Positions 12,653-42,423 of a stretch of DNA of 46,975 nucleotides are shown here, one piece after another; the first letter of the stretch is position 1, and each line of letters opens with the position of its first letter. Position numbers and translations under genes: made by a program. The notes beneath the pieces are model-generated. The model searched no databases and was not told the origin of the DNA. It worked only from the letters and a program-made list of their open reading frames with translations. Source of the DNA: Anaerolineae bacterium (lineage in GTDB: Bacteria > Chloroflexota > Anaerolineae > CG2-30-64-16); contig JAPKMS010000142.1 in the NCBI GenBank assembly GCA_026645775.1, forward strand, positions 1-46,975. Direction: 5' to 3'.

Positions 12653-12663
12653 GGAGCGCCTTG

Positions 12664-14654: not shown

Positions 14655-14684
14655 GCAGACTACAGAGAATTTAGTCCCCCTGCC

Positions 14685-14720: not shown

Positions 14721-14764
14721 AAGGGGAGCTTGGCCGGGCCAGGTCCGCCTGTCAGACCAGACGA

Positions 14765-15487: not shown

Positions 15488-15524
15488 AGCTCACACCCCT
15501 TTGCTTGGTCAGCGCGTGAACTCT

Positions 15525-15553
15525 ATTATACGCTGAAGCCGCAGCAGTCGCAA
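15525..15553 (-). promoter_or_regulatory. Putative promoter for the response regulator
   Basis: Minus strand TTGCGA, 17 bp, TATAAT. Confidence 0.65.
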
Positions 15554-15566
15554 GTCAGACCAGTCT

Positions 15567-15595
15567 TTGACCTTTATCAGGGGCCGTGGTAAAAT
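15567..15595 (+). promoter_or_regulatory. Putative promoter for the glycosyltransferase operon
   Basis: TTGACC, 17 bp, TAAAAT with an extended TG. Divergent from the regulator promoter. Confidence 0.65.
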
Positions 15596-15605
15596 CGCGG
15601 GCGTT

Positions 15606-16424: not shown

Positions 16425-19400
16425 TTGAAATCCTCGCACAGGTTAGATATCCTTTGCATCCTGGCACTGCTGCTGCTGCCGCTCCTGTGGTTTGCGCCAC
16501 AGGTGCTGGGCGGCAAAACGCTGCTCCCTGTCGATAATCTTTACACCTTCAACCCCTGGCAGAGCTTTGCTGCGCAACAGGGCGTCGGTGTGCCGCACAA
16601 CGGCCTCATCAGCGACCTGATCCTGGAGAACTACCCGTGGAAGTCGTTCATCAGCGAGGCGCTCCGGACGGGCGACCTGGCAGGTGTGCTGTGGAACCCG
16701 CGGCTATTTGCCGGGGCGCCGTTCCTGGCCGCGGGACAGCAGTCCGCGCTCTACCCGTTGACGGCGTTATTCTACATCCTGCCGCTCTGGCTCGCTTACG
16801 GCGTCTTCACCTGGCTCCAGATCGGGCTGGCCGCGGCCGGCATGTACGTCTTTGCGCGGGTGCTGCGTCAGCGCCGGTTGGCCGCCATGCTGGCCGCGGT
16901 CGCCTATGCGTTCTCCGGCTTCTTCATTGTCAGCGTCAACTTCACGATGATCATCGCCGCGGCCGCCTGGCTGCCGCTGATCCTGGCGATGATCGAGATC
17001 GCCATCCGCAAGCAGGAGCAGAAAGGCGCCGGCCCCTTCTCGCCGGTGCCCTACATCGCAGCGGGCGCGCTCTTCTTGGGGATCGAGAACCTCGCCGGGC
17101 ACGTCGAAATCACCTACTACACCCTGATGGTCAGCGCGTTCTACGCAGCCTGGCGGTTGATCGCACTCCGGCGCCGGGTCGGCGCCTGGCGGCCCGCGCT
17201 GCGGTTGGCCAGTTGGTTGGGGGTGATGGTGGCACTGGGGATGGCCCTCGGCGGCGTGCAACTGCTCCCGCTGTTCGAGTTGGTGCGGCAGAGCTTCCGT
17301 GAAGGGTCGGCCAGCTTGCAACAAGTGCGGGATTGGGCCTGGCCCAGCCGGCAGATCATCACCTTCCTGCTGCCCGATGCGTTCGGCAACCCGACCACCC
17401 ACAGCTATTTCGACATCTGGCAGCGCGTCTGGACACCCGTGACGCAAAACGCACTCGGCGGCGAACTCACTGCCATCGATTGGGGCGTGAAGAACTACGT
17501 CGAGGGTGGGAATTACCTGGGCATTCCAACGTTGCTGCTGGCAGTCATCGCAGTCATGACATCCGTTATCCGGAATCGAGGCTTTAGCCGGTTTGTCGGA
17601 TTCCCCACGCAACCGGCTGAAGCCTCGATTCCGGAGCCATCGAACCGCCGTGGCTCCGTCTCCCTCTTTGCTGTCCTGGCCGTGCTCTCGCTCCTCTTCG
17701 CTTTCGGCACACCGCTGTACGCCATCCTCTACTATGGGCTGCCCGGCTACAGCCAACTGCACTCCGCGTTCCGCTGGGTGTTCCCCTACACGCTGAGCAT
17801 GGCGGTGTTGGCAGGGTATGGGCTGGACGCGTTAATTGCAAATTGCGAATTGCGAATTGCGAATTCACCTGCCTATCCAAAGCAATCTACGATCCGAATT
17901 CCGCAATCCGCAATCATCCTCGGTTGGTTGGCCGTGATCGCCGGGACCGGGGCGCTGGCCGCGGTGCTGGTCAGCATCTTCGTGCCGGGACCCTTCGTGG
18001 CGCTCGGCGACCGGCTGCTGGCCGCGTCCGATCTGGCGCGGCAGTTTGGCTATGCCGACGGCGCGATGGCCTGGAGCCATCAGGCGTTGGGGCTGGCGCG
18101 GTTTGGGGCGATGGCGTTGCTGTCGGGCGGCCTGTTGGTGTGGGGAACACGGAGACGCGGAGACAAGGAGACAAGGAGACAAGGAGACAGGGATCTCCCC
18201 CACACTCCCATCCTCCCACACTCCCATCCGCCCATACTCCCCCTCGCCGCGTCCTTCATCGCCCTGCTCATCCTCGATCTCTGGCTGTTCGGCCATCATT
18301 TCAACCCGGCGACCGACCCGGGGCTGTTGCAGTTCAAGCCACCGGCCATCGAGTACCTGCAAAGCAAGCTGGATGCGACGCAGCCGTGGCGGCTCACCAG
18401 CTTCGACGTGCCCGGCGAGAAGGTCTTGAACGCCAACGCGGCCATGTCGTACGGGCTGGAAGACGTACGCGGTTACGACTCGATCATCCCCAAGCAGTAC
18501 GTCGCGTACATGCGCCGCATCCAGACGCAAGATGACCTGCTCTACAACCGCATCGCGCCGATCTACACGCAGATCGGCGGCCAGCCCAACTATGACGCGC
18601 TGGATAATCCGTTACTGGATCTGCTGGGCGTCCGTTATGTCGTCACCACGCATGCGATCCCCAACGCCGGTTATGAGCTGGTCTACGATCAGGAAGTCAA
18701 GGTCTACGAGAACCGGGGCGCGTACCCGCGTGCCTTCATCGTGCCGGCGGCGGTCGCTGCGGCCGATCAAACCCAGGCGCTGGACCTACTGCAAACCGTG
18801 GATCCCGCGCAAACCGTGGTCATTGAAGGCCTCGCCGCAGATAAACTACCGGCGCCGGCATCGCCCCAGGTGCGCGAGGCGCGGATCAGCCAGCGCGGCA
18901 ACCGCGAGATCTTCGTGGACGTGAACATCAGCGATCGCGGTTGGCTGGTGTTCACCGACAACTATTTCGACGGCTGGAAGGCGTACCTGCGGCCGTTCGG
19001 GGTGGAGGGCGAGGGCGTCAACGAACAGGGCGAGTCCATCGAAGAGCAACTGTCGCTCTACCGGGCCGATGGCACGTTCCGCGCAGTGTACCTCCCGGAA
19101 GCGGGCCAGTGGACGGTGCGCTTCGTTTATTCCCCGCGCAGCCTGCTGCTGGGGCTCTACGCCAGCTTCCTGGCGGGCATCACGCTGCTCCTGCTGGCCG
19201 GCTGGTGGGCGTGGGGCCGTTTTTATCGCGGCGAGCGCAGCGAGATGGGCACCGTCGCCAAGAACAGCGCGGTGCAGATGGGCATGTCGTTGCTGAGCAA
19301 GGGCATCGATTTCGCGTTCGCGATGCTGCGTCTGCGCATACTGAGCCCAGCCGGCGAAGGCAGTTACGCGTTTGCGATCGCATTCTACGGCATCTTCGAG

Positions 19401-20744
19401 ATCGTGACCCGGTTCGGCCTGGGCACCCTGGTCACGCGCGATGTCGCCATTGACCGCAGCCGCGCCCGTCGGTTCCTGGCCAACACCCTCGCGCTGCGCA
19501 CCGGGCTGTGGCTGCTGAGCTTACCAGTGATGGCCGCCGTCGCGCTGAGCTATCGCGTCTTCCTCCATCAGCTCACCGGCGCCGAAGCACAGGCGATCCT
19601 GCTGTTCGCCGGCGCACTGCTGTTCGCCAATATCAGCGACGGCATCAGCTCGATCTTCAATGCTTATGAGGAGATGGAGTACCCGGCCGGCATCGCGACG
19701 GCAATCGCCACGGCCAAGGTCGCGTTGGGCGCGCTGGTGCTGCTGCCCCCCTTGGAGCTCGGTTTTGTGGGCCTGGCCGGCGTCTCGCTGGTGATGAACA
19801 TCGTGCAGATGATCTGGCTGTGGGTCGTGCTCCAGGATAAGGTGCTGGGCCGAGAAAACGCGGCGACGCGGGGACGCGGGGACGCGGGGACGCGGCGAGG
19901 GAGGCTCGGCCTCGACCTGCCCCTCCAGCGCTACATGCTGCGCGAATCCGGCCCGCTGATGATCAACAACCTGCTGGCGACGGTGTTCTGGCGGATCAGC
20001 CAGTTCGTGCTGCGCGGGGCGACCAACCCGGCGGCGCTGGGCATCTTCTCTGCCGGTGTGAAGTGGTTGGACGGCTTGAACGTGATCCCGGCGTATTTCA
20101 CCCTGGCCATCTTCCCGTTGATGAGCCGTTATGCGCAGGCGGGCAAGGATTCGCTGGTGAAAGGTTACCGGCTGGCGTTACAACTGCTGTTCATCGTCGC
20201 GTTGCCCATCGCCATCTTTTTCACCTTCGCCGCCACGCCGCTGATCCAGATCCTGGGCGGTGCGGCATATCTGCCCGACTCGGCCATCGCGCTGCGCATC
20301 ATGATCTGGTCGATCCCTATCGGCTTCGTGAACTCGGTGACGCAGTACGTGCTCATCGCAGTCAACCAACAGCGCACCCTGACCAAAGCGTTTATCATCG
20401 GCGTGCTGTTCACTGCCGCGGCCAACCTGATCTTCATCCCCCGGTTCGGCTACGTCGCCGCGGCCATCATCCAGATCCCGGCGGAGCTTTCGCTCTTTAT
20501 CCCGTTCGGTGTCGCCGTAAGACGCCACGTGGCGCCGATGAACTGGGCGGCGCTGTTGGGCCGGCCGCTGCTGGCCGCAGGGCTGAACGTCGCGGCCGTT
20601 TGGGGCTTGCAGCGTATCGGTTTGCCCCTGTGGCCCGCGCTGGCGATCGGCTTCGGCATCTACGCGGCGGTGCTCCTCGTCCTCGGCGTTTTCCGGGCCG
20701 AGGAATTTGGCGCCCTTCGCAGTCTTCTGAGACGCAGGCGGTAA
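16425..20744 (+). CDS. Fusion of YfhO-like (GT-C fold) membrane protein and C-terminal Wzx/MOP-type flippase
   Basis: N-terminal WNPRLFAGAPFLA...LYP, AYAFSGF, GYDS, LLDLLGVRYV, YENRGAYPRAF, DNYFDGWKA. From about 19250: VAKNS...FGLGTLVTRDVA, IFPLMSRY, NLIFIPRFGYVAAA. TTG start. Confidence 0.8.
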   Translation: MKSSHRLDILCILALLLLPLLWFAPQVLGGKTLLPVDNLYTFNPWQSFAAQQGVGVPHNGLISDLILENYPWKSFISEALRTGDLAGVLWNPRLFAGAPFLAAGQQSALYPLTALFYILPLWLAYGVFTWLQIGLAAAGMYVFARVLRQRRLAAMLAAVAYAFSGFFIVSVNFTMIIAAAAWLPLILAMIEIAIRKQEQKGAGPFSPVPYIAAGALFLGIENLAGHVEITYYTLMVSAFYAAWRLIALRRRVGAWRPALRLASWLGVMVALGMALGGVQLLPLFELVRQSFREGSASLQQVRDWAWPSRQIITFLLPDAFGNPTTHSYFDIWQRVWTPVTQNALGGELTAIDWGVKNYVEGGNYLGIPTLLLAVIAVMTSVIRNRGFSRFVGFPTQPAEASIPEPSNRRGSVSLFAVLAVLSLLFAFGTPLYAILYYGLPGYSQLHSAFRWVFPYTLSMAVLAGYGLDALIANCELRIANSPAYPKQSTIRIPQSAIILGWLAVIAGTGALAAVLVSIFVPGPFVALGDRLLAASDLARQFGYADGAMAWSHQALGLARFGAMALLSGGLLVWGTRRRGDKETRRQGDRDLPHTPILPHSHPPILPLAASFIALLILDLWLFGHHFNPATDPGLLQFKPPAIEYLQSKLDATQPWRLTSFDVPGEKVLNANAAMSYGLEDVRGYDSIIPKQYVAYMRRIQTQDDLLYNRIAPIYTQIGGQPNYDALDNPLLDLLGVRYVVTTHAIPNAGYELVYDQEVKVYENRGAYPRAFIVPAAVAAADQTQALDLLQTVDPAQTVVIEGLAADKLPAPASPQVREARISQRGNREIFVDVNISDRGWLVFTDNYFDGWKAYLRPFGVEGEGVNEQGESIEEQLSLYRADGTFRAVYLPEAGQWTVRFVYSPRSLLLGLYASFLAGITLLLLAGWWAWGRFYRGERSEMGTVAKNSAVQMGMSLLSKGIDFAFAMLRLRILSPAGEGSYAFAIAFYGIFEIVTRFGLGTLVTRDVAIDRSRARRFLANTLALRTGLWLLSLPVMAAVALSYRVFLHQLTGAEAQAILLFAGALLFANISDGISSIFNAYEEMEYPAGIATAIATAKVALGALVLLPPLELGFVGLAGVSLVMNIVQMIWLWVVLQDKVLGRENAATRGRGDAGTRRGRLGLDLPLQRYMLRESGPLMINNLLATVFWRISQFVLRGATNPAALGIFSAGVKWLDGLNVIPAYFTLAIFPLMSRYAQAGKDSLVKGYRLALQLLFIVALPIAIFFTFAATPLIQILGGAAYLPDSAIALRIMIWSIPIGFVNSVTQYVLIAVNQQRTLTKAFIIGVLFTAAANLIFIPRFGYVAAAIIQIPAELSLFIPFGVAVRRHVAPMNWAALLGRPLLAAGLNVAAVWGLQRIGLPLWPALAIGFGIYAAVLLVLGVFRAEEFGALRSLLRRRR
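17569..17635. repeat. REP-like long palindrome inside the CDS
   Basis: TCCGGAATCGAGGCTTTAGCCGGTT / AACCGGCTGAAGCCTCGATTCCGGA: 25-bp arms, one mismatch, 17-nt loop. Confidence 0.85.
17834..17915. repeat. Heptamer tandem repeats (AATTGCG and CAATCCG types) inside the CDS
   Basis: AATTGCA plus AATTGCG x3 at 17834-17861; degenerate CAATCCG tract at 17883-17915. Confidence 0.85.
18151..18242. repeat. Octamer tandem repeats (GGAGACAA and CCCAYMCT types) inside the CDS
   Basis: Five GGAGACNN units at 18151-18190, then five CCCANNCN units at 18199-18238. Confidence 0.88.
19857..19895. repeat. Octamer tandem repeat (GACGCGGG) inside the CDS
   Basis: GACGCGGG x3 plus a partial copy at 19865-19895; degenerate unit at 19857. 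Confidence 0.85.
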
Positions 20745-30100: not shown

Positions 30101-30469
30101 CTACGCCGCGGTCGGCGCCAACTCGCGGAACAGGAACCATGCGCCCTTGCGCTGGCTTGAGCCCTTTGGCGCGCGGTCGTAGTAGAGGTCAAAGATCGGC
30201 CCGGCGTCGGTGCGAACACGGAAATATGCGCGCCCCACACCCCAGGAGCCGCGCACCGCGGCCGCCTCAGCGTGATCGGGGCGCATGTTACCCGCCATGC
30301 GGCCGCGGCGCGCATAATCGTGCCACTCGTTCAACAGCTCGGCCACCCGATAGGTCTCGCCACGCCAGAGGAACGCATCGGGACACGGCGGGCGCTTCTC
30401 GAACACCGGCGCGGCCGCAAAACGGACTTCGATCGGTTCGTCAATAAATCGCAGGGGAGATAATTCCAT
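30101..30469 (-). CDS. DUF6504-like small beta protein
   Basis: DEPIEV, PDAFLWRGETYRV, W...YFRVRT...FDLYYD...WFL. The extended -10 TGCTATAAT (30489-30497) favours ATG 30469. Confidence 0.7.
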   Translation of the reverse strand: MELSPLRFIDEPIEVRFAAAPVFEKRPPCPDAFLWRGETYRVAELLNEWHDYARRGRMAGNMRPDHAEAAAVRGSWGVGRAYFRVRTDAGPIFDLYYDRAPKGSSQRKGAWFLFRELAPTAA

Positions 30470-30607
30470 CTCGTTCACCTTGACGCCCATTATAGCACGA
30501 AGGTCGTACGGGGAAGAGAACGCGATGAGGAGCAAGCCGTGAAATAGAAAAGGGTGGCGGCTGTTATGCAAGCCACCACCCCGTCACCAATTGAAATCGG
30601 TAGGCGA

Positions 30608-33145
30608 TCAAGCCGGTGTCTGGGGCGTGTGTGCGTCCCTGGCCCGCACCCGAAGCATCTGGCGCCGACGGCGAGCCAGCCACACACCGCCCAGGCCCAG
30701 GATGCCGCCCGCCAGCAGCAGGCCGGGGAACAAGGTTGCGTCCCCCCGGGCAGTGAAGCCAGCCAGATGCACGGCTGTCGGGCCGACACTCGAGCCGACC
30801 GCCCAATCCGAGAAGCCGGTGATGTTTGTGCGTGTCACCGTCGAGGTTGTGCTGGTCGTGTTCGCGCCGTTATCGCAGTCCCACCCAGAGCCGCCCAGGC
30901 CGCCCGGATACCGGCAGACGCGTGGGCTGGGCAGGTTGCTGTGCGGCAGCGCCAGCGTCACCTGGTAGCCGCTGGCCGCTCCGCCGCCGCTGGCTGTGCC
31001 GTTGATCGTCCAGTAGCGGCCGGTCTGGATGCCGGTCGTGGCGTTGGGATGATTCGCATCGGTGCGCGTCACCGTAATGCAGTCCAGCGTGCCCACGGTG
31101 ACAACCGTGATCGCGACCGTATTGACGGTCGTGAAGTTGTAGGTGTTGCCCGCCGTGAACCCACACTTCGTCTCACTGATCGCCTGGACGATGGTCGTGG
31201 GATCATTGGCGGTATCGTTGCCGGTATTGGACTCGCCGCCGCCCGACACAGTCGCCGTGTTGGTGACGCTCGGCCCGGCGTTAGCCGCGACGTTCACCGT
31301 CAACGTGAGATCGTTGTAACTGGCGCCCGCGCCCAACGCATCGCTGCGCGTGCAGGTCAGCGTCGCCAGGGTGCAGCTCCAGCCCGTGCCGCCGAGCGCC
31401 GTGGCGGTCAGGCCGGCAGGCAATGTGTCGACCACACTGACGGCGCCGCTGGTTGCCGCGGTGCCACTGTTCGTGGCCCGGATCGTGTAGGTGGCGCCGG
31501 TCTGGCCCTGGGTGAAGTTGCCGGCGTGCGTCTTGGTGATCGTGAGGTCGGGCGCAGTGACCGTAATAGTCGCCGTGATCTTCTGGCCGTCGGCGGTCGC
31601 ATCCGCGCTGCCCGCACCCGGCGTCGTGCCGGCGTTATAGGTCGCGCTGGCCTGGCCGCCGGTGAACTGCGTGCTGGCTCCCGTAAGTGTGCCGAGAACC
31701 GCGTTGCTGAACACTGTGCCGGCGGGCACGGGGAACGCGGCCAGGTTGGTCAAGCTGCTGGCAGCGATGGCCCCGCCGGAGTTGCGCCCTAGCAGATCGG
31801 CGGCCAGGGCCGACGTGCCGTTGATGAGGATCGTCGTTGGGCTGGCGGCGTGGCGAAGCTGAAGCCAACGGGTGACGGTGGCGCCGGCGTTGGTGTTGGG
31901 CGCGACGGGACAGCCCGTGCCGGTCGCGCCAGGCCCATCGTTGCAGCCCCACCAGTTGTCTTCGGCGGTCAGCGTGCCGGCCGAGCGCGACACGCCGCTG
32001 CCGGAAGGGGCCGTGTTACCGACGATCCGGCTGAAACTGACGTTGAGCACTGCGCTGGCGTTGCTGTCGTTACGAATGCCGCCGCCCGCGGTGGTCGCGC
32101 TGTTGTTGAAGAACGTCACGTTGGTCAGCGTGGTCGTGCCGGGGGCGTTGTTGAACAGCCCGCCGCCGTATCGGCCCGAGCTGTTGCCGCTGAACACCGT
32201 GCCTTGGTCAATGGTCAGCGCATCGGTGGTGTAGATGCCGCCGCCGTCGCTGGGCGCCTGGTTGTTCGAGATGGTCCCGCCGTGGATCGCCGATCCGGCG
32301 GGCGAGGCATCTCCGAAGTAGAAGATGCCGCCGCCCTGGCCCTGCCCCGCAGACCCCATCACCGAATTGCCGGTAATGTTGGTATTGGTGAGGACGAACT
32401 TCATGTTGACGCCAAAGAAGATCCCGCCGCCGACGGGTGAGCTTGCTCCGACGCGCCCCGGGTGGTTGTTGGCGATCGTGCTGTTGGTGATGGTCACCAG
32501 GCCGTTGCCGGCTGTGCTGTTAGTTGCCGCGAGCCCGCCCCCATCCCCATCCGTGGTCGAGTTATCGGTGACGATGCAGTCCGTGAGGGTCAGGTTGCCG
32601 GTCCCGGAAGCCTCGAAATCCAGGCCGCCGCCGAAACCATCTCCTAAATAGCCGCTGGGGTTCTTGCCGTAGCGGATCGTCATGCCGCTGAAGGAAACGT
32701 TCAGCGGCGTGCCGAAGTTCGGGTTGACCGAGAAGACCTTGTCAATGCCGCTCCCCGCGCTGGCGCCGGCCTGGATGATCGTGCTGCCCGACCCCGCGCC
32801 GACCAGGCTCATGCTCTGCAAGATGTCGAGGTCGCCGGTGGCGGCCGCGTTCTCGTTGGCTCCGGCGATGGACAGGGTGTAGGTGCCGGCCGGGATGGTG
32901 ATGGTGTGCGGCCCCGCGCTGGCGTTCGCCGCCACGATGGCCTCCCGCAGGCTGCAATCCGCGTTGCAGGTCCCGTCGTTGGTATCGGCGGTCTTGGTGA
33001 CGGTGAACGAGGCCGCCGACGCGCGCTGGACGGGCAGAACCATTAGCCCAAGCACCAACAGGAGCGCCCAGGCGCCGAAAACCAGGCGTTTGCCGACGCC
33101 AGACCAGCCGGTCTGGCGTGCTGAATGGGGCGAGTGAGTTTCCAT
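30608..33145 (-). CDS. CSLREA-domain surface protein with beta-helix repeats, Ig-like and DUF11 domains, and PTAV-TM-RRRR C-terminus
   Basis: Signal peptide; VTKTADTNDGTCNADCSLREAI; repeated GGGI/N turns; DLTITKTH...VVDTLPAGLT...NDTAND (DUF11); GPTAVHLAGF, hydrophobic helix, RRRR. RBS AGGAGA. Confidence 0.88.
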   Translation of the reverse strand: METHSPHSARQTGWSGVGKRLVFGAWALLLVLGLMVLPVQRASAASFTVTKTADTNDGTCNADCSLREAIVAANASAGPHTITIPAGTYTLSIAGANENAAATGDLDILQSMSLVGAGSGSTIIQAGASAGSGIDKVFSVNPNFGTPLNVSFSGMTIRYGKNPSGYLGDGFGGGLDFEASGTGNLTLTDCIVTDNSTTDGDGGGLAATNSTAGNGLVTITNSTIANNHPGRVGASSPVGGGIFFGVNMKFVLTNTNITGNSVMGSAGQGQGGGIFYFGDASPAGSAIHGGTISNNQAPSDGGGIYTTDALTIDQGTVFSGNSSGRYGGGLFNNAPGTTTLTNVTFFNNSATTAGGGIRNDSNASAVLNVSFSRIVGNTAPSGSGVSRSAGTLTAEDNWWGCNDGPGATGTGCPVAPNTNAGATVTRWLQLRHAASPTTILINGTSALAADLLGRNSGGAIAASSLTNLAAFPVPAGTVFSNAVLGTLTGASTQFTGGQASATYNAGTTPGAGSADATADGQKITATITVTAPDLTITKTHAGNFTQGQTGATYTIRATNSGTAATSGAVSVVDTLPAGLTATALGGTGWSCTLATLTCTRSDALGAGASYNDLTLTVNVAANAGPSVTNTATVSGGGESNTGNDTANDPTTIVQAISETKCGFTAGNTYNFTTVNTVAITVVTVGTLDCITVTRTDANHPNATTGIQTGRYWTINGTASGGGAASGYQVTLALPHSNLPSPRVCRYPGGLGGSGWDCDNGANTTSTTSTVTRTNITGFSDWAVGSSVGPTAVHLAGFTARGDATLFPGLLLAGGILGLGGVWLARRRRQMLRVRARDAHTPQTPA

Positions 33146-33210
33146 GGCGTTTTCTCCTGGACGAATTCGTTGGCATCTCGCGATCCGATGCTGCGCGATT
33201 AACATGTCCA

Positions 33211-33305
33211 GTGGGACAGGTTGGCGGCCTGTCCCACATCAGTGGGTATCTTCTCAAAAATCCGGGGGCAACGTGCCTGGCACTTCCGCCAAGTACCAGG
33301 CACGT
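33211..33305. repeat. Two REP-like palindromes
   Basis: GTGGGACAGG/CCTGTCCCAC (33211-33237) and ACGTGCCTGGCACTT/AAGTACCAGGCACGT (33271-33305). Confidence 0.7.
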
Positions 33306-33338
33306 AATTGCAAGCCCCCTAAAAATAGAGAGGACACA

Positions 33339-33867
33339 TCAGTTGCGCGACGGGAAGACACCTTGCAGCGCGATGATGAAACTGACACCCAGATAGGGTG
33401 AACGGTTGTTGTGCGGTTGGCTGCCCCCGGTCGGGGCCAACGCCTGCGGGCTGAGCGCAGCGCCCGGATTTGAATTGGCTGCGTAGGCAGCGCGGGCGGC
33501 CGCGGCCGCCCGCGCCCCAGGTTGCGCCCGCCGGGCTCATCTGCCCGCTCGCCGACGCGTCCGCTTGCGGCTGGTGCGCATGGGCCGGCATCTCGCTCGC
33601 GATCAACGTGACGGTTGTGTTGCCGCCGATTTCTCCCAAGTCGCGCGAGGTCAGGCCGGGACCCTGGCCCAGATGCATCGGCGAACGATTCTGCAAATCG
33701 GGCAGGGCGAAGGTGGTCTGGCCGTTGCCCCCGTACGTCGTCCCAAGGAGCGAGAAGAGGGCCGTATTCTGGGCGATTGACAGGATTTGACCGTTGCAGA
33801 ACGCCCAGCCCCTGGGCGCAAAGTTGCCAGCGAACATCCGGATCTCACCGACAAATGGATCGGACAT
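33339..33867 (-). pseudogene. Tail-collar domain protein 3 (microcystin-dependent protein-like), frameshifted near 33492
   Basis: MSDPFVGEIRMFAGNFAPRGW...LPDLQNR...MPAHAH. The conserved C-terminus GGSQPHNNRSPYLGVSFIIALQGVFPSRN* is in another frame; span 529 nt = 3n+1. Confidence 0.8.
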
Positions 33868-34003
33868 GGTACTCTCCTTTATGTGCCACACTGGGCGGTC
33901 GGAAACCGCTGCAACCTTTGCCAGGTCAGCCTACGCTGACCGATCCTGACCGACAAAGGTCGGCTTTGCACAGGTTGCAACGACCTCGGTCGCCCGCCGC
34001 AGC

Positions 34004-34504
34004 CTAATTCCGCGAGGGGAAGATCCCCTGCAGTGCAATCACGAAGTTGACCACGAGATAGGGCTGCTGGTTGGTATGCGGCTGGCTGCCGCCGGCCGTA
34101 CTGACCGACGCCGGGTTCAGCGCGGTATCCGGTGCGCTGTTGCTGAATGGGTTACTGGACGCCGCCGCCCAAACGTTGTCGGCCGGGGATGCGGCGCTCG
34201 CATCGGCAGCGTCGCCCTTCACCGCATGGGTGTGCGCGGGCATCTCGGAGCTGCTCAGCGTGTGGTTCTCTTCGCCGCCGGTCTGGCCCAGTTGAATCTC
34301 GCTGCCGGGGTGGGCAGGGCTGCGCCCGCGCAGATCGGGCAGCGCAAAGGTCGTCTGACCATTGCCACCGTAGGTCGTGCCCAGGAGCGAGAAGAGCGCC
34401 TGGTTCTGGTTGATCGGCAACAACTGGCCGTTGCAAAGCGCCCAACCCTTCGGCGCATAGGTAAAAGCAACCATTCTGATTTCGGCGAGGAACGGAGTGG
34501 CCAT
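34004..34504 (-). CDS. Tail-collar domain protein 2
   Basis: PFLAEIR, APKGWALCNGQLL, LFSLLGTTYGGNG, FALPDLRGR, MPAHTH, IALQGIFPSRN. Confidence 0.9.
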   Translation of the reverse strand: MATPFLAEIRMVAFTYAPKGWALCNGQLLPINQNQALFSLLGTTYGGNGQTTFALPDLRGRSPAHPGSEIQLGQTGGEENHTLSSSEMPAHTHAVKGDAADASAASPADNVWAAASSNPFSNSAPDTALNPASVSTAGGSQPHTNQQPYLVVNFVIALQGIFPSRN

Positions 34505-34543
34505 GATTTCCTCCTGAAGATGGCGCAACGCCTGGCTGCGGCG

Positions 34544-35059
34544 TTAGTTCTGCGCCGGGTAGATGCCCTCGAGGGCGATGATGAAGCTGACGACCTGGAA
34601 AGGCATCATGTTGTCATGCGGCAGGCTGCCACCGGCTGGGCCAATCGCCGCGGGGCTCATTCCGGCGCTGGGCGGGTTCGCGGAGAACTGATTCAGCCCG
34701 GAGGCCGCCCAAATGCCGCCGCCCGGCGCCGGCTGATTCCCTGCCGCGGACTGCGCCTGCGCCGCGTGCGTGTGCGCCGGGAACTGCCCTTGGGTCAGCG
34801 TCACGGTCTCGCTGCCCGCGCTCTGGCCCAACACGTAGCTCGACAGGCCGGGACCCTGACCCGCGTGCACCGGAATCCGGCCGCGCAGGTCAGGCAGGGC
34901 AAAGGTCGACTGCCCGTCACCGCCGTAGGTCGTTCCGATCAGGCTGAAGAGCACATCGTTCTGGGAAATCGCCAGGAGCTGGCCGTGACAAAACGCGAAA
35001 CCGCGCGGCGCGAAATTGCCGCCGAACATGCGGATCTCACCGATAAAGGGTGTACCCAT
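34544..35059 (-). CDS. Tail-collar domain protein 1
   Basis: PFIGEIRMFGGNFAP, LFSLIGTTYGGDG, FALPDLRGR, PAHTH, PHDNMMP, IIALEGIYP. Confidence 0.9.
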   Translation of the reverse strand: MGTPFIGEIRMFGGNFAPRGFAFCHGQLLAISQNDVLFSLIGTTYGGDGQSTFALPDLRGRIPVHAGQGPGLSSYVLGQSAGSETVTLTQGQFPAHTHAAQAQSAAGNQPAPGGGIWAASGLNQFSANPPSAGMSPAAIGPAGGSLPHDNMMPFQVVSFIIALEGIYPAQN

Positions 35060-35161
35060 GTCTAACTCCTTTTCTAACACCAACCCTGTCTCTGCGCGGC
35101 AGGAGCAGAGACGGAAAGGATTAATCCCCCGCTGAACCTTTCCCTCATCCCGGTTCCGGGA

Positions 35162-35470
35162 TCACTCAGGCCGCAGCCGATTAAACACCGCCTCGTACAG
35201 AAATCCATCAGCTTCCTGGCCGACTGGCGCCAGGAACAAGTCGAACCGCCCCAACGCAGGGTGTTCCATCGGGAGCGTGCCCTGGCCCAGGAAGCGCTCC
35301 CGCGGCCCCCGAAAAGTGAGCGCAAACTGCTCCTGGCGATCAGCGGCCCGACCCTCGCGCAGCTCGATCAACGCGATCTCGCACGCCTCACCTTCCGCGC
35401 CAAGCACCCGAAAGTTGCTGTTGAGCTGTGCGGCGAAGTTATCCCTGCTCAACTGTTCTAACACGATCAT
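35162..35470 (-). CDS. DUF6916-like small protein
   Basis: FALTFRGP...LGQGT...HPALG...LFLAPVG...YEAVFN. Start is ATG 35470 or GTG 35464. Confidence 0.78.
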   Translation of the reverse strand: MIVLEQLSRDNFAAQLNSNFRVLGAEGEACEIALIELREGRAADRQEQFALTFRGPRERFLGQGTLPMEHPALGRFDLFLAPVGQEADGFLYEAVFNRLRPE

Positions 35471-36503
35471 CCACCTCTCGATCTTCCGGCAAGCGCCGGT
35501 GAAACGCCAAGGGCTCCCCTGCCCTGCCGAGGCGCACCGCCTCCAGTTCGGCATACAGCGGCCCGAGCTGCTGCTCGGCCAAACCCCGCATCGCAGGCGT
35601 GACTGCGGCCTGCTTGGCCGCGGTGTCGGCTGTGAACAAAAGCGACGGCGCCTTGGCATCGTAAACGGCTGCCCGACGCATCCGATCCAATTCAGCGGCG
35701 TCAAACGTGGCCCCAAAATGGCCGGCGATCTCCGCAAAGACCGCCTCAGGCAACTGCCGATAGTTCACGAACAGCCCGCCATCATCCCGGTGCGCCAGCA
35801 CGCCCTGGCAAATGGTCGCCAACACACGCACAGCATATTCATCGAGTGACAACGCAGCAGTCGCAGTCATGTCCAACCCCATCCAGCCGGGACCCACGAT
35901 GCCGGGCACCATCTGGGCGCCGGGCTGCCGCCGGTGCGACACGAGCACCTCGGCCGGCTCCCGGTACAAGAAGATCCACGGCACGTCCGGATACGCCCGG
36001 CGGATCAGTCCCAAGTCCACCGTGTGCCAGCTATCGAACTTGATAAACAGGCGCTGTTCTTGGGCGGTGCGCGGCCGGCCGAGTGCACTGATCACTCCCT
36101 GCAGCCAGGCGATACGCTGAGCATCGGTGACACTGTGATCCCATAACCCAGCCCGCAGCACGCTTTCGATCACACTGGCTTCCGAAATCATGATATTCGA
36201 CGGGAGCGCCGCCAACATCTGCGAGACCAGGGTCGAGCCGCAGCGTGACATATGAAAGATGAACCCCGTCGGGCGAATTCCGGGGGCAGCCGTCTGCGTG
36301 TCCACCAACGCCTCGATGGGCGTCTGCCGGCGAAAGACCAGGTTGAACGGCCGCTGCAGGCACGAACCGATCGTCTCGTCAAAGAACGGGGCCGTGAAGC
36401 GTGCGCCGTCCAAGAAACACCAATCCACTGCCCAGCGGCCGTCTCGTCGGTAGACACGGATCGGCGCCCAGTCTCGCCACAGGTCGGGGGTCAGGGCAGC
36501 CAT
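35439..36503 (-). CDS. Sulfotransferase-like P-loop protein
   Basis: FIFHMSRCGSTL (5'-PSB-like loop), IKFDSW, LYREPAEVLVS (3'-PB-like). Start overlaps the upstream small ORF. Confidence 0.8.
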   Translation of the reverse strand: MAALTPDLWRDWAPIRVYRRDGRWAVDWCFLDGARFTAPFFDETIGSCLQRPFNLVFRRQTPIEALVDTQTAAPGIRPTGFIFHMSRCGSTLVSQMLAALPSNIMISEASVIESVLRAGLWDHSVTDAQRIAWLQGVISALGRPRTAQEQRLFIKFDSWHTVDLGLIRRAYPDVPWIFLYREPAEVLVSHRRQPGAQMVPGIVGPGWMGLDMTATAALSLDEYAVRVLATICQGVLAHRDDGGLFVNYRQLPEAVFAEIAGHFGATFDAAELDRMRRAAVYDAKAPSLLFTADTAAKQAAVTPAMRGLAEQQLGPLYAELEAVRLGRAGEPLAFHRRLPEDREVDDRVRTVEQG

Positions 36504-36727
36504 CGCTCGATCCACGTGCGCTTCCCGGCCTGCATGGCCTGCCGGACGTCTTCGGCCGCAAAGCTACATCCGTGGGACTCGCCGAGCGCCACAGTCAGCG
36601 CCACGAACGCCTCACGCTCCGTCTCAGCCCACAGTTGGCCCTGGAGCGCCGCGTCCGTCATGACCAGCCGCCGAAAACCCGTAAGCGCATCACCGGCCTC
36701 CGCCGCGGGTGTGAGCAGGTCAACCAT
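36491..36727 (-). CDS. Small Nif11-leader-like protein (78 aa)
   Basis: LTGFRRLVMTDAALQGQL...FVAL...GESHGCSFAAEDV matches the F..V..D..LQ..L...G..F...E/D pattern. Overlaps both neighbours. Confidence 0.65.
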   Translation of the reverse strand: MVDLLTPAAEAGDALTGFRRLVMTDAALQGQLWAETEREAFVALTVALGESHGCSFAAEDVRQAMQAGKRTWIERWLP

Positions 36728-37301
36728 CTGACCCGACCCCCTGCGACTCCAACTGGAAGAATTGCGTCAGCCACTCATTGACCACACAATCGATCACCAG
36801 ATGGGTCCGGTCGATTCGGCTGCGGTTCTCGACCCGATGCGGGAGGTTGACGTTGAGATACCAGCACTCGCCCACCGCCAGCGGGATACGGTCTCCGGCC
36901 AGGAAAAAGGCCACGTCTTGATCTGTCACGATGGGCACGTGGATCCGGACCTCGCCATCCTCGTAGCCCAGCCGATAGTCGCGGTGCTCGGCGATGCTCG
37001 ACCCGGCCTGGAGTCGCAGCAGACGCACCGAAGTCAGCAGGCACTGGAAGGTTGCCAGAACTTCCTGGTAATACGGACAGCGTCCCAACGTCTCGGTGTC
37101 GGCGAAACGATCGGTGGCCGTCGGATCGGGATAGAGCTGCATCGCCTTGCCGCCGACCGAGCGCAGGGCCACGCCGCTCCAATCGCCCTCATAAATGCTT
37201 TTGTTGAAGTGCGGAACCCATTCCTCTGCCGCGATGCGGCCCAGATCGGCCGTGAGACGGGCCGGATCAAAACGGAAGGGTAACTTGAGACTTGTGACCA
37301 T
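36720..37301 (-). CDS. Aspartyl/asparaginyl beta-hydroxylase domain protein (Fe/2OG)
   Basis: SVRLLRL, IAEHRD (HxD), RIHVPI, GECWY, LPHRVEN, RTHLVID. Its ATG overlaps the GNAT stop. Confidence 0.85.
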   Translation of the reverse strand: MVTSLKLPFRFDPARLTADLGRIAAEEWVPHFNKSIYEGDWSGVALRSVGGKAMQLYPDPTATDRFADTETLGRCPYYQEVLATFQCLLTSVRLLRLQAGSSIAEHRDYRLGYEDGEVRIHVPIVTDQDVAFFLAGDRIPLAVGECWYLNVNLPHRVENRSRIDRTHLVIDCVVNEWLTQFFQLESQGVGSDG

Positions 37302-37822
37302 CAGCGCTGCTCCTGTGTCACAGGGACTGTGACAGTAGGTGTCATACCCTGTGCGGTGCTCGGACGCCACGCCATCTCCAGGTAGATGTCGTCACCCGCC
37401 GTTTGCGCGAATTCCAACCGCTCGTACAGGCGCCGCGCCCGGTTGGCTTGATCCACGTGCAGCACGACCGGCCTGCCGGCCTGAGCCGCCTCAACCTGGA
37501 GCGCGCGGATCAACACCGTGCCGAGGCCAGCGTTCCGATGTTCCGGCAGCAGGCTGATGTCAACCAGGTGCAGCGCCTCCGCGGAGCGATCCACGATCAG
37601 GCGGCCGGCATCAACAGCTTCGCGCTGGATAATATACTGGTCTGCGCCCGGAAACTGCGCCAGATAAGAGCGGCGTTGCGCCTGATACTGCAGCTCCAAA
37701 AACGCTTGCTGCTGCGTCCCATCCCAGGCCATCATGCCCAACACCTCTGCGCGCGTGCTGGCGAACACCTGGCGCAAAAAACTGTCGTCCTGCGCAGTAG
37801 CGGGTCGCAACTTGGCTGACAC
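37301..37822 (-). CDS. GNAT family N-acetyltransferase
   Basis: LRPAT, VDISLLPEHRNAGLGT (acetyl-CoA motif A), LHV, NRARRLYERLEF. GTG 37822 follows GAAGGTG; the ORF is open to 37879. Confidence 0.85.
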   Translation of the reverse strand: MSAKLRPATAQDDSFLRQVFASTRAEVLGMMAWDGTQQQAFLELQYQAQRRSYLAQFPGADQYIIQREAVDAGRLIVDRSAEALHLVDISLLPEHRNAGLGTVLIRALQVEAAQAGRPVVLHVDQANRARRLYERLEFAQTAGDDIYLEMAWRPSTAQGMTPTVTVPVTQEQR

Positions 37823-38312
37823 GTACACCTTCGGCTGGCCTCTCAGATTCTCGACGGGCCCCGATCCGGGGTATGCCACTTCCGGCCATCCTGTGACTTG
37901 ACGGTAAACGCATGATCCTAAACCACTCTCGTGGCAGTCATTTCGCCGTCCCGTTCAACAATCTTATAGCGATCAATTATAAATCAAACACTGTACAAAT
38001 GCAGTCTACGCCCCACGGAGCATTCATACTGTAAGAACAGCTACAAGAACACATTTCACGATCAATTGCGCGGCAGGATAAGGCGCGAAGCGGTCCCCTG
38101 GTGGGGCGTTCGGCATGAGGCTCGCCATTTCGGGCCGCTGATTGCAGGACCGGTGAAGGAGAGACTATCAGGGAGGCAGATCAGCGGCCCAGGCGAAAGT
38201 CCTAAACCGTAGTCAGGCCCGATCGGAATACACGCCGCGTGCCCCGATGACTTCGCTGCATCCGCCATCCCGTGGTAAACTGGCGCATCACACCCAAACG
38301 AGGAACCCGATT

Positions 38313-39457: not shown

Positions 39458-41698
39458 TCACGCCTTGCTTTTCGTGGCCAGCCGGCTCTGTAGCGCCTTG
39501 AGGATGTCCGCGAGGGACTTGACGTCGACCTCACTCCAGCGGCCGTCAAAGAACTGCTCCGGCCCAAGCGCCACCCGGCTCATCCACCACTGTGCGTTGA
39601 ACTCGCGCTGCGGAAACTCCGCGTAGCAGATGCGCCCCGGGCCCGGCTGGCCGAATCCGACGTTCTTCGGGTTGTAGTAGTAGATGCCGTCGCAGCCGAA
39701 CAGGAACCAACCTTGCCATAACGCCGCCATCGAGGCCGTGACCAGCCCCAGGACGCGCTCCGCGGCCGGCACATCGCAGAGTTCCCGGGCCTGGGCCAGC
39801 TTGTCCGCTGGGATGTTCGGATCCAGGTACAAGCGCCCCTGTTTGAAGCTTTTGAGGAGATCGCGGATCTCATCTGGGGCCAGCAGCGTCCCGGAGGCCG
39901 CGTCGGGCGCCAGTGGCCGCGCCGGCAGGATCTCCAGTGTGCCTTCAGCCTGGACCGTGATGCGTTGGCCGTTGCTCGCCAGCGCCTCCACCGAGACCGT
40001 CTCGGAGATCAGCCCCGGAAACGCGTACGCGGCCTCGAAGGACACGGTCCGCTCCTCGCCGCAGGCCAGGGAGACCGGCCCGAGCAGGCTCGCGGCGCCG
40101 CGCCTGGCTTTGACCTCCTTCAGGGCGGCATCTCCATCGTTTTTGATGCGTACGTGCCACGTTGCTGGGCTACCTGCGTCGATGGCGCCGGGCCTGGCCG
40201 ACAGCTTGACGGCCAGATGGGGGTGAATCGGGGGGCGCGGCGCGGGCTCAGCAGGCGCCTTTGCAGGCTCTGATTTTCGGTGCGACAGGGCCGTCTGGCT
40301 GTCTGCCGCGGCCGGCTTCCCCCCGCCGGTGGATGCGACGCCGGCCACCGGGGCAGAAGTCTTCGTGCCGCCGCCCTTGGCGCCTGCTGGCCGAGGCCGC
40401 CGCTTAGCGGGTGCAGCAGCCTCGGCGGCCGGCTTGGCCTTGACGGGTTCCTGGTCGACAGGCGCTTCGGCAGGCGCGGCCTTCAGCGCCGCCTGGCGCA
40501 CCGGCGGCTCGGCCTCAACCGGCTCCGGCCGTGGGGCCCTTTCGACTGGGGCCGGCGCCGGAACGACTTCGAAGACGCGGCCTTGCGGCACGCGCATGAA
40601 CAGCACCGGTGTGGCCCACTCGAAGCCACGCGCATCTTGCATCCGCACAGCTCTCCGCCCTTCAGCGACCGCCGCATCCACCGGATTATCCCGGGCCAGC
40701 AACGGGTAAAAACGCTGCGCAAACGTGATCGCCGCCGCATCCGAGATGGGAAACTGCATGGCTACGACGGCAGGAACCCCGGCCAGCACCATCGCCGTGG
40801 CGACGCCGGCAAAGGGGTTGAGCCCTTGCCCCTGGGCCGATTGCGCTGTCCGGCAGGCGTTCAGGAACACCAGGCCCAACTTCGCGTCCCGCAGCAGGAT
40901 TCCCAGCGTTTCGCCATCGACCCGCTGGGCCTGGCCGTGCTGGTCTTCCAGCAATATGACCCCGCGGCCGGTCTCCTGATCGAAATCGCCATGGCCCATG
41001 AAGTGCAGGATATGATACGGCTTCTCGACCAGGCGGTCCTGCAACTCCTGGATCGCGGCGCGCTGAATGAACTCCACCTCGACATTGTCCTGTTTGGCCC
41101 AACTGTCCTGGATCAACTTGCGCTCCCGGTCGAGGTCGAGCGGATCATAGCCGGGCGGGCTGGCAATCACCACCAGGACGCGCAGGGGCAGTTCCAGTGG
41201 CACCGGATTGTCGGGCTGCTGAACGTTCAAGTAGCGGATGATAGGGGTTAATCTGGAGAGGCTCAAAAACTCGCTGGTGTGCCTGTAGTGGAGCAGTTCC
41301 CAGGGCAGGTTGGCCAATAATCTCAGGCTGGGCTCAGTCGGGTCGATGTGCAGCTTGATCCGCAGCCCGCGGCGCCCGGGACGCTCGTCACGCCACCCAA
41401 AGCTCCGCTCCAACAGCGAGCGCACGGAACCCGAAAAAAGAGCATCGAAGAGCTGATCTCCGGCATCCTCGGCCTGCGGCCCCGCGGCAGCCGGCGGCGC
41501 GGGTGCGATCGTGGGCTGTGCGCCGCGCACGACCTGGCCCAGATCCACCAACAGCGGCCCGATCGCCTCGGGGTCGAACGGCAGGCGGAATGTCGAGCGG
41601 CCTTCGCCGGCCGGGGATTGCAGCACCAGCGCCGTATACCCCCCATCCTCGTCCGGTTCGATCTTCAGCGAGAAATCACGGTACTCGACTTCGATCAT
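39458..41698 (-). CDS. CHAT (caspase-like) domain protein with Pro/Ala linker, Ig-like and unknown C-terminal domains
   Basis: LPWELL, LRVLVVIASP, HFMGHG, FLNAC, AVVAMQFPISD, WATPVLF. Confidence 0.85.
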   Translation of the reverse strand: MIEVEYRDFSLKIEPDEDGGYTALVLQSPAGEGRSTFRLPFDPEAIGPLLVDLGQVVRGAQPTIAPAPPAAAGPQAEDAGDQLFDALFSGSVRSLLERSFGWRDERPGRRGLRIKLHIDPTEPSLRLLANLPWELLHYRHTSEFLSLSRLTPIIRYLNVQQPDNPVPLELPLRVLVVIASPPGYDPLDLDRERKLIQDSWAKQDNVEVEFIQRAAIQELQDRLVEKPYHILHFMGHGDFDQETGRGVILLEDQHGQAQRVDGETLGILLRDAKLGLVFLNACRTAQSAQGQGLNPFAGVATAMVLAGVPAVVAMQFPISDAAAITFAQRFYPLLARDNPVDAAVAEGRRAVRMQDARGFEWATPVLFMRVPQGRVFEVVPAPAPVERAPRPEPVEAEPPVRQAALKAAPAEAPVDQEPVKAKPAAEAAAPAKRRPRPAGAKGGGTKTSAPVAGVASTGGGKPAAADSQTALSHRKSEPAKAPAEPAPRPPIHPHLAVKLSARPGAIDAGSPATWHVRIKNDGDAALKEVKARRGAASLLGPVSLACGEERTVSFEAAYAFPGLISETVSVEALASNGQRITVQAEGTLEILPARPLAPDAASGTLLAPDEIRDLLKSFKQGRLYLDPNIPADKLAQARELCDVPAAERVLGLVTASMAALWQGWFLFGCDGIYYYNPKNVGFGQPGPGRICYAEFPQREFNAQWWMSRVALGPEQFFDGRWSEVDVKSLADILKALQSRLATKSKA

Positions 41699-41723
41699 CG
41701 TGTTCCCCCTTAATGCACCACAC

Positions 41724-41736
41724 TGCCATTATACCA
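41724..41736 (-). promoter_or_regulatory. Putative extended -10 promoter for the CHAT gene
   Basis: Minus strand TGGTATAAT (TATAAT at 41733-41728), about 30 nt before the ATG. No clear -35. Confidence 0.5.
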
Positions 41737-41750
41737 GATCGCGAAGACAA

Positions 41751-41783
41751 CAAAAACGGGAGAGCAGTATCTGCCCTCCCGTT
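41751..41783 (-). terminator. Intrinsic terminator after the zinc-ribbon gene
   Basis: Minus strand AACGGGAGGGCAG-ATA-CTGCTCTCCCGTT followed by TTTG. Confidence 0.7.
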
Positions 41784-41822
41784 CATTACCATATTCCTAG
41801 GGGAAGATGGTTCTAGACGACT

Positions 41823-42239
41823 TTACCAGTCGCTGCGGCCGCCGCGGCTGCCGCGATCACGGCTGCTGCTGCCGCCGCTGGAACGACCGCCGCCGTAGCC
41901 ACCGCTGCCGCCGCTGGAGCGACCGCCACCGTAGCCACCGCTCGTGCCGGCCGGGCGCTGGGACTTGAAGCAATCGGAGCAGTAGACCGGCTTGTCACCG
42001 CGCGGCTGGAACGGAACTTCGGTTTCCTTGCCACACTGCGCGCACACGGCCGGGTACATCTGGCGATCGCCACGATCGGCGAAACCGCCGGCCCCGCGGC
42101 TGGCCTTGCGGGCCGCGCGGCAGCTCGGGCAACGGGTCGGTTCGTTGGTGAAACCCTTCTGGGCGTAGAATTCTTGTTCGCCGGTGGTGAAGACGAACTC
42201 ATTACCACAATCTACGCAAACGATAGTCTTGTCTTGCAT
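41823..42239 (-). CDS. Zinc-ribbon / CxxC-x17-CxxC domain protein with Gly/Ser/Arg-rich tail
   Basis: MQDKTIVCVDCGNEFVFTTGEQEFY...PTRCPSCR; AVCAQCG...VPFQP...VYCSDCF. RBS GAGGAG. A 36-bp duplication at 41868-41939 encodes GGYGGGRSSGGS x2. Confidence 0.9.
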   Translation of the reverse strand: MQDKTIVCVDCGNEFVFTTGEQEFYAQKGFTNEPTRCPSCRAARKASRGAGGFADRGDRQMYPAVCAQCGKETEVPFQPRGDKPVYCSDCFKSQRPAGTSGGYGGGRSSGGSGGYGGGRSSGGSSSRDRGSRGGRSDW

Positions 42240-42394
42240 GGTGAATAGACTCCTCTGAACTGAAACTGAAAGAAATGAGATAGTTATTGGGTCGATCCGT
42301 TTGCGCGAGTCTGGTAGGGGGGCACAAGCCTCAAGGGAACTACAGAGAAGTCCCACCCGGTTCCACCGAGCCACGGAAAGCAACAACGAATTAG

Positions 42395-42423
42395 AATGTA
42401 CCACCATTCTGAAAAAAGCGCAA
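42395..42423 (-). promoter_or_regulatory. Putative promoter for the zinc-ribbon gene
   Basis: Minus strand TTGCGC, 17 bp, TACATT with an extended TG. Confidence 0.5.

Follow-up and report, generated by a model that had tools for sequence, protein, structure and literature searches.

The gene cluster and its recurrence

We analyzed a gene cluster on the minus strand of a 46,975-nucleotide (nt) stretch of DNA from an Anaerolineae bacterium, hereafter called the window. The window is the entire contig JAPKMS010000142.1 of a 4.38-Mb assembly of 478 contigs (GCA_026645775.1). Between positions 30608 and 37822, the cluster encodes a GNAT acetyltransferase, a hydroxylase, a small Nif11-like protein, a sulfotransferase-like enzyme, a protein of family DUF6916, three short proteins with a Collar domain, and a large surface protein. 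An open reading frame (ORF) check with translation found the nine minus-strand ORFs at the positions given in a preliminary description of this DNA, which had been made from the sequence alone. That description had spoken of nine co-oriented genes, the first five overlapping. All were found as stated, with overlaps of 1, 8, 13 and 32 nt between successive genes, and the families were matched by Pfam and NCBIfam models.

The first gene (37301..37822) codes for the GNAT acetyltransferase. Its product scored above the Pfam cut-offs of FR47, Acetyltransf_7, Acetyltransf_1 and Acetyltransf_10 and contains the stretch R-N-A-G-L-G, which we take to be the acetyl-CoA loop (motif R/Q-x-x-G-x-G/A). The start codon is ambiguous and may be the GTG at 37822, 37828 or 37879. 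The DUF6916 protein (35162..35470) has 102 amino acids (aa), lacks a signal peptide and matched PF21880 with 91 bits (cut-off, 27). Downstream of it lie three consecutive, co-oriented PF07484 genes, each encoding a protein of about 170 aa. They correspond to collar type A (34544..35059; 171 aa; 99 bits against a cut-off of 24), type B (34004..34504; 166 aa; 101.9 bits) and type C (33339..33867; 104.9 bits; stop codon at 33339-33341). The preliminary description had listed three short collar genes. A Collar domain is indeed present in all three, but the third gene is frameshifted near position 33492 in this assembly, its C-terminal part lying in a different frame.

We compared this site with contigs from other runs. 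In a GC-rich stretch at 33492, the contigs of runs X2 and X4 lack one base and thus carry the intact form, the contig of run X3 agrees with the window, and the X6 contig does not span the site. Without that base, the type C frame encodes 175 aa and aligns without gaps to the type C collar of the closest related locus (82% identity). Given these contigs and the gapless frame, at least some members of the population probably have an intact type C gene.

To survey other genomes, a DUF6916 alignment was run against one-genome-per-species contigs. The best 80 of 137 confirmed loci were examined, and all counts out of 80 refer to this set. Homologs were counted by searching all six-frame ORFs of the loci with the window proteins. 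A GNAT homolog was detected in 78/80 loci and collar homologs in 73/80. Exactly three collars were present in 55/80 loci, and many of the remaining loci are cut by contig ends. Homologs of the hydroxylase (7/80), the sulfotransferase (8/80) and the Nif11-like domain (8/80) were rare, and a CSLREA-like homolog was found in 24/80 loci, mostly directly after the third collar. Since the hydroxylase and the sulfotransferase occur in just 7 to 8 loci, they are not part of the core. The core cassette is composed of GNAT, DUF6916 and three collars, while the hydroxylase, the adaptor and the sulfotransferase are a rare accessory module. The wide recurrence of the GNAT, DUF6916 and three-collar set, as asserted in the preliminary description, was thus borne out by the gene neighborhoods.

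Judged by the record names, the loci come from at least 8 phyla. Most belong to Acidobacteriota; Chloroflexota, Planctomycetota, Verrucomicrobiota, Bacillota, Bacteroidota and Abditibacteriota are also represented. An Anaerolineales assembly contains the closest locus (L001), which shares 72% identity in DUF6916 and 75-81% in the collars. DUF6916 also matched 12 plasmid or megaplasmid records of cultured Pseudomonadota. Five of these were examined (Ruegeria sp. TM1040, Rhizobium bangladeshense, Comamonas antarctica, Azospirillum sp. TSH100 and Pontibrevibacter), and each contained DUF6916, GNAT and three "tail fiber protein" genes, with order and orientation differing between the records. In Ruegeria sp. 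TM1040, the genes concerned are TM1040_RS01845 to RS01880 on a megaplasmid, and in Comamonas antarctica they are HUK68_RS19575 to RS19605. That the set is retained despite this shuffling gives good support to a functional link. Within Chloroflexota, the DUF6916 family is patchy: it was present in 8 of 401 sampled genomes, including the source genome, and was not found in the single sampled genome of the same taxonomic family. The source genome contains one copy of the collar cassette, and the window DUF6916 is its sole copy of that family.

The locus had also been described as non-phage, and this held. Among 39 window ORFs scanned with Pfam, no integrase, terminase, capsid, portal, sheath or baseplate family was detected, and a DUF6916 search of 50,697 phage records gave no match. 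The scanned ORFs include genes for cytochrome c maturation, Lgt, phosphofructokinase, CorA, peptidases, a chromate transporter, a CHAT protein and AddAB-like helicases; with no phage structural family among the 39, the window collars do not belong to a phage tail or tailocin gene set. At the other loci, the recurrent neighbors are regulators, enzymes and giant surface proteins. We are highly confident that the cassette is conserved and non-phage.

Short "tail fiber protein" triplets are usually annotated as prophage remnants, and the locus could be read as what is left of a decayed prophage, tailocin or contractile-injection system, now functionless. Collar domains do originate in phage fibers, IMG/VR lists similar triplets (two beside integrases and one after an eCIS_core protein), and this assembly has a frameshift in the type C gene. 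However, the contigs of two other runs lack the frameshift, one-of-each retention of the collars holds across phyla (see below), the 39 scanned ORFs include no phage structural gene, and DUF6916 matched none of the 50,697 phage records. A functionless remnant is therefore extremely improbable.

In IMG/VR loci, for which 10 ORFs were scanned, other collar arrangements were seen. In L097 (6987-11133), a collar triplet directly follows a 654-aa eCIS_core protein, without GNAT or DUF6916, and this represents a different triplet context. L091 (5633-8906) contains two collar triplets in tandem, preceded by two proteins with collagen repeats and CBM96, and L092 (1-5453) contains three triplets in tandem.

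Three collar types

A collar tree was computed from 165 rows, 163 from the 55 three-collar loci (two truncated sequences were dropped) and two from the window. Three clades emerged. Clades A and B comprise 56 rows each and clade C comprises 53, with a support of 97 for B and of 80 for C. Every locus in which the three collars are full-length (53 loci) encodes one A, one B and one C protein. The order was ABC in 36 loci and BAC in 17, with type C last in every case. Type profiles gave the same one-of-each result for all 55 loci, which is a non-independent check, and also found one of each in 9 triplets from 8 loci that had not been used for profile building. The collars of the divergent IMG/VR loci L090, L092 and L093 did not type cleanly.

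All three types have an invariant HxH after the Collar domain and a further His in a QPH motif. In type A, H96/H98 and H148 were invariant (45 sequences), in type B H91/H93 and H143 (45 sequences), and in type C H96/H98 (44 sequences). In gp12 and gp37, the HxH motif has a role in metal binding. The N-terminal 70 residues of the collars are homologous to the collar in the C-terminal part of T4 gp12 (E, 2.1e-5).

Besides the homology of the Collar domain, the likeness to T4 gp12 (PDB 1ocy, 1pdi and 5iv5) extends to the HxH in all three bacterial types. In contrast, gp12 (527 aa) is homotrimeric, has a long shaft and is built into a baseplate, whereas the bacterial set consists of three separate, shaftless paralogs of about 170 aa, encoded on a non-phage chromosome together with GNAT and DUF6916.

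A closer parallel in gene arrangement comes from virophage DSLV2. The published study (PMC12724248, J Virol 2025) describes three consecutive PF07484 proteins that copurify as a 1:1:1 heterotrimer of about 55 kDa; the complex forms 16-nm fibers and binds Synechococcus cells. The same study reports the PF07484 triplet in 45 virophages and states that tips of the gp12/gp37 type bind lipopolysaccharide (PMC12724248). As in the window, the three viral genes are consecutive and co-oriented, and they are of similar size. In contrast, they lie in a viral context beside capsid genes, with no GNAT, DUF6916, Tat-signal partner or giant adhesin. In a literature search on tail collar heterotrimers, this virophage work was the sole study that turned up.

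Taken together, the one-of-each rule, the HxH motif, the homology to gp12 and the DSLV2 precedent make an A1B1C1 knob the most economical reading. By analogy with these systems, we consider it rather probable that the collars form a 1:1:1 heterotrimeric knob resembling gp12/gp37.

DUF6916, enzymes and giant neighbors

DUF6916 is a large family without assigned function. It has 8,756 representatives at E ≤ 1e-3, and a literature search retrieved no paper with the word DUF6916. Among the 150 best-scoring representatives, most have about 100 aa and a minority about 140-150 aa. The AlphaFold2 model of the window protein is all-beta with six strands (predicted local distance difference test [pLDDT], 89). 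Foldseek searches of this model against PDB and BFVD gave nothing at E ≤ 0.001. Among the weak rows are hub proteins of phages (Mu gp44, 1wru; MuSo2, 3cdd; a "43 kDa tail protein"; gpD), which we treat as a lead only. A protein atlas search returned DUF6916 clusters only.

In 48/80 loci, we found a second, longer DUF6916 protein with a twin-arginine (Tat) signal, consisting of SRRxFLK and a hydrophobic stretch. A regular expression detected 46 of these, and two PRR cases were added by eye. The Comamonas locus also encodes a Tat-signal DUF6916. No signal peptide was detected on the collars, the short DUF6916 or GNAT. Their N-termini are strikingly uniform, starting with M, then A, S or G, then x-P-F/Y. 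In Tat "hitchhiker" export, subunits without a signal are exported with a signal-bearing partner, e.g., in Escherichia coli hydrogenase-2 and dimethyl sulfoxide reductase. The cassette resembles this in that a predicted folded oligomer without signals is encoded beside a small partner with an SRRxFLK signal. It differs in that the window lacks a Tat-bearing copy. A folded, probably metal-bearing trimer beside a Tat-signal partner would suggest hitchhiker export. In a complex prediction with the window collars A and B, the type C collar of L001 and DUF6916 as partner, the score was 0.00 against a mark of 0.32, a result that weighs neither way.

The accessory hydroxylase (36720..37301) is an Fe(II)/2-oxoglutarate (2OG) oxygenase of the Asp_Arg_Hydrox family (PF05118, 53.5 bits; cut-off, 22.6). 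H-x-D (EHRD) and the distal H (LPH) are conserved among its homologs. Among proteins of solved structure, it is closest to L-proline cis-4-hydroxylase (4p7w; E, 8.5e-10) and proline 3-hydroxylase (1e5r), and a weak NCBIfam match to "nonproteinogenic amino acid hydroxylase" was also obtained. The window enzyme, a PF05118 member, shares with these free L-proline hydroxylases the cupin core with H-x-D...H. It has 193 aa and aligns with about the first 180 residues of their 290 aa.

The accessory sulfotransferase-like enzyme (35439..36503) matched Sulfotransfer_3 (PF13469) with 31.4 bits (cut-off, 27). Residues S86, R87, G89, S90, T91, R181 and S189 were invariant in 12 homologs. We take S-R-x-G-S-T and R181/S189 to be the 5'-phosphosulfate-binding (5'-PSB) and 3'-phosphate-binding (3'-PB) loops for 3'-phosphoadenosine-5'-phosphosulfate (PAPS). 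Profile matches in PDB were weak (Stf1, E 0.016; TPST1, E 0.09). The preliminary description had counted this enzyme as part of the cassette. When 400 other genomes of the phylum were searched with the sulfotransferase as anchor, a tie to such cassettes was supported: two of the three carriers have the gene inside a collar cassette, and in the third it lies 77 kb from the DUF6916 gene of that genome. We also noted a single 373-aa metagenomic protein (P0067) with Sulfotransfer_3 and DUF6916, which may have arisen by genuine fusion or may be an artefact of a frameshift where two genes overlap.

The small accessory gene between these two enzymes (36491..36727) codes for 78 aa. The protein, called "Nif11-like" in the preliminary description, matches the NCBIfam Nif11 leader model below threshold (19.6 bits; cut-off, 32.3), and a Pfam scan gave no match. 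Its C-terminus, RR.WIERW, is conserved across three phyla. In loci L004, L005 and L078 the Nif11-like domain is fused to the C-terminus of the hydroxylase, and in L087 to the N-terminus of the sulfotransferase (Pfam: Nif11 and Sulfotransfer_3). Fusion to either enzyme argues for an adaptor and against a precursor peptide. From these sequence features, the protein is best read as an adaptor between hydroxylase and sulfotransferase, and a role as a separate substrate was not supported.

In principle, the 78-aa protein could be the precursor of a ribosomally synthesized and post-translationally modified peptide (RiPP) that is hydroxylated and sulfated by the neighboring enzymes. Like the Nif11-leader precursors (TIGR03798), it matches the leader model, weakly and over residues 15-64, and its gene sits between two tailoring enzymes. 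One Azospirillum locus also has lasso-peptide genes around the cassette. In contrast to those precursors, however, the protein scores under the family cut-off and has a conserved instead of a variable C-terminus, its translation lacks a Gly-Gly before the C-terminal stretch, and elsewhere the domain is fused to the hydroxylase (three loci) or the sulfotransferase (one locus). Furthermore, the window encodes no peptidase, cyclase or transporter partner. We regard a RiPP pathway as very improbable. The Azospirillum locus (L113; plasmid p1 of strain TSH100, 5900-16300) places the cassette amid genes for lasso peptide B2, an asparagine synthase-related protein, an aspartyl/asparaginyl beta-hydroxylase, a 2OG-Fe(II) oxygenase and a cupin. 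A link to peptide tailoring is possible there, at this one locus.

The enzymes differ between cassettes. Sulfotransferase without hydroxylase was found in five loci (L008, L010, L026, L085 and L087) and hydroxylase without sulfotransferase in two (L007 and L079). Other cassettes contain a 581-aa Methyltransf_28 protein (14 loci) or a 2OG-FeII_Oxy_3 oxygenase after the third collar (3 loci). The picture is one of a constant structural core with interchangeable tailoring enzymes.

These findings bear on the maturation line proposed in the preliminary description, in which the hydroxylase prepares a site for the sulfotransferase, GNAT acts alongside, and the modified collars cap a CSLREA adhesin fiber. 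The overlap of the five enzyme and adaptor genes fits this proposal, as do the presence of two of three copies of an otherwise rare sulfotransferase (3/400 genomes) in collar cassettes, the one known Sulfotransfer_3-DUF6916 protein and the CSLREA-like proteins after the triplet in many loci. Yet each enzyme occurs without the other, so that hydroxylation as the step that creates a sulfation site is not supported, and both are non-core. Free proline is the substrate of the solved enzymes most similar to the hydroxylase, and the protein substrate assumed for it is likewise not supported. In addition, the giant neighbors differ in architecture and the collars lack signal peptides. We consider the maturation line unlikely.

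Alternatively, the enzymes could make or decorate a small molecule or a surface glycan, for instance an amino acid or sugar that carries acetyl, hydroxyl or sulfate groups, that is bound or carried by the collar trimer or the giant protein. The similarity of the hydroxylase to free-amino-acid hydroxylases, including its weak "nonproteinogenic" match, is in line with this. The sole PDB match of GNAT, a weak one, is puromycin N-acetyltransferase, a small-molecule enzyme, and the lipopolysaccharide binding of gp12/gp37-type tips (PMC12724248) points the same way. On the other hand, the cassette has no conserved carrier, ligase, glycosyltransferase or exporter gene, and its enzyme set varies by locus whereas collars and DUF6916 are constant. 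To such a small-molecule or glycan pathway we likewise give little credence.

Downstream of the collars in the window lies the gene for the 845-aa surface protein (30608..33145). It contains a CSLREA domain (TIGR04214 CSLREA_Nterm, residues 67-94; 39.9 bits; cut-off, 25). Its N-terminus is signal-like, and at the C-terminus a hydrophobic anchor stretch precedes RRRR. To analyze such neighbors, we used those three-collar loci in which the last collar is followed by at least 3 kb of sequence (44 loci). An ORF of at least 750 aa on the same strand, starting within 1.5 kb after the triplet, was present in 33/44 loci. Among ORFs upstream of cassettes, 33/434 were that long, a contrast inflated by kinship among the loci. 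A giant gene also adjoins the cassette in four of the five plasmid loci. The neighbors are of unrelated kinds and include CSLREA/CSLRGA beta-helix proteins, He_PIG proteins with Ig repeats, cadherin-like proteins of about 1,900 aa, FG-GAP proteins, a DUF4347-fn3 protein with an IPTL-CTERM signal, a choice-of-anchor D protein and a YDG protein of 3,937 aa. The regular expression used for CSLREA misses the CSLRGA variants and thus undercounts this kind. The link between the cassette and large envelope proteins is real, and the preliminary description was correct in placing such cassettes beside large surface proteins, a placement that extends to cultured Pseudomonadota.

The stop codon of the type C gene (33339) and the start of the CSLREA gene (33145) are separated by about 190 nt. 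This gap contains a dispersed palindromic repeat of about 70 nt (33247..33318, minus strand) with a strong hairpin followed by U5. Its predicted RNA fold has -42.3 kcal/mol (z, -5.2). Elsewhere in the genome, 21 further matches to the repeat are spread over 15 places; it also matches contigs of other organisms in wastewater runs, and such contigs pile up there. The repeat may terminate or attenuate transcription between the cassette and the CSLREA gene, and with its U5 in the gap, the CSLREA gene may be a separate transcription unit. A terminator-like hairpin with a T-tract lies 3' of the CSLREA gene (30551..30582, minus strand; 12-pair stem with 8 G-C pairs, then TTTCTATTTC). An Rfam scan of positions 30300-38300 gave no match, and a promoter scan found none on the minus strand.

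Two further features of the window were noted. In a polysaccharide-related neighborhood, a 1,439-aa ORF at 16425-20744 encodes an unusual fusion of a YfhO-like membrane domain and a Polysacc_synt flippase domain. At 39458-42407, a 746-aa CHAT-domain (caspase-like) protein adjoins a 194-aa protein with zf_Tbcl and zf_Tbcl_2 treble-clef zinc fingers, and the two may form a pair.

A candidate surface-binding device

The recurrence of the collar triplet and its partners beside giant surface proteins in unrelated bacteria points to a viral binding device that was probably borrowed. We propose that the cassette encodes a domesticated heterotrimeric fiber tip with DUF6916 as partner, which is tailored by enzymes and acts at the envelope together with giant adhesins. 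We assign this reading a probability of about 0.45. What the sequences show directly is the gene content, its conservation, the one-of-each rule, the Tat signals, the gene fusions and the proximity to giant genes, whereas the heterotrimer, its export, the surface role and the substrates are inferred. Its surface component, taken separately, is conceivable at somewhat less than even odds.

According to this model, collars A, B and C would be folded jointly in the cytoplasm, giving one 1:1:1 knob similar to the tips of T4 gp12/gp37. Each chain would supply an HxH pair to a metal site that all three share on the threefold axis. DUF6916 would be a dedicated partner of the knob, either an assembly factor or a docking adaptor. 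In most relatives, the Tat-signal copy of DUF6916 would take the folded complex across the membrane; the window is without that copy. At the cell envelope, the knob would serve as a lectin-like binding module together with the adjacent giant, anchored repeat proteins. GNAT and the variable enzymes would tailor the cassette product or its ligand. In the window, the variable enzymes would be the 2OG hydroxylase and the PAPS sulfotransferase, joined by the Nif11-like adaptor; elsewhere a Methyltransf_28 enzyme or a P4H-type oxygenase would take this place.

Several observations weigh against this proposal. The collar tree is a quick tree, the monomer model of a collar is poor outside the Collar domain (pLDDT, 62), and no collar has a signal peptide. 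Relatives from Acidobacteriota dominate the loci, so that the counts are not independent. The window and the whole metagenome-assembled genome lack a Tat-bearing DUF6916, as do 20 of the 55 three-collar loci when the two PRR cases are counted as Tat-bearing; a Tat route therefore cannot be universal. No giant gene follows the triplet in 11/44 loci, the giant neighbors have no common architecture, a common docking domain was not seen among them, and in the window the hairpin repeat with its U-tract stands between triplet and CSLREA gene. A cytoplasmic role is conceivable.

Such a role could be that of a GNAT-centered toxin-antitoxin-like, stress or defense module with the collar trimer as sensor or scaffold, the giant neighbors being coincidental. 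The lack of signal peptides on GNAT, short DUF6916 and collars, the tight coupling of GNAT with a small protein in most loci, and the missing Tat copy in the window would all suit an intracellular core. The Tat-signal DUF6916 paralog of 48/80 loci and the strong enrichment of giant secreted neighbors argue against it, and NCBIfam lists no toxin-type GNAT family for the window GNAT (the PADLOC defense library was not searched). We judge an intracellular module to be quite improbable.

The proposal of a domesticated fiber tip can also be put in a broader form: bacteria of many phyla would have domesticated a heterotrimeric fiber tip of phage or virophage type as a surface lectin that is assembled with DUF6916 in the cytoplasm, tailored by GNAT and variable enzymes, exported in folded form by a Tat-signal DUF6916 paralog and working with giant adhesins in cell-cell or cell-substrate recognition. 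In this full form it is rather unlikely. If true, the device would define a new class among those by which bacterial surfaces recognize their targets, and Tat would have a new kind of cargo.

Recognition of the cassette turns scattered hypothetical genes into one testable system, which occurs in cultivable and non-pathogenic bacteria such as Ruegeria sp. TM1040, Rhizobium, Azospirillum and Comamonas. If the reading as a binding device is true, it would bear on adhesion and on floc and biofilm formation in soil and wastewater bacteria, and on the cellular reuse of viral receptor-binding modules.

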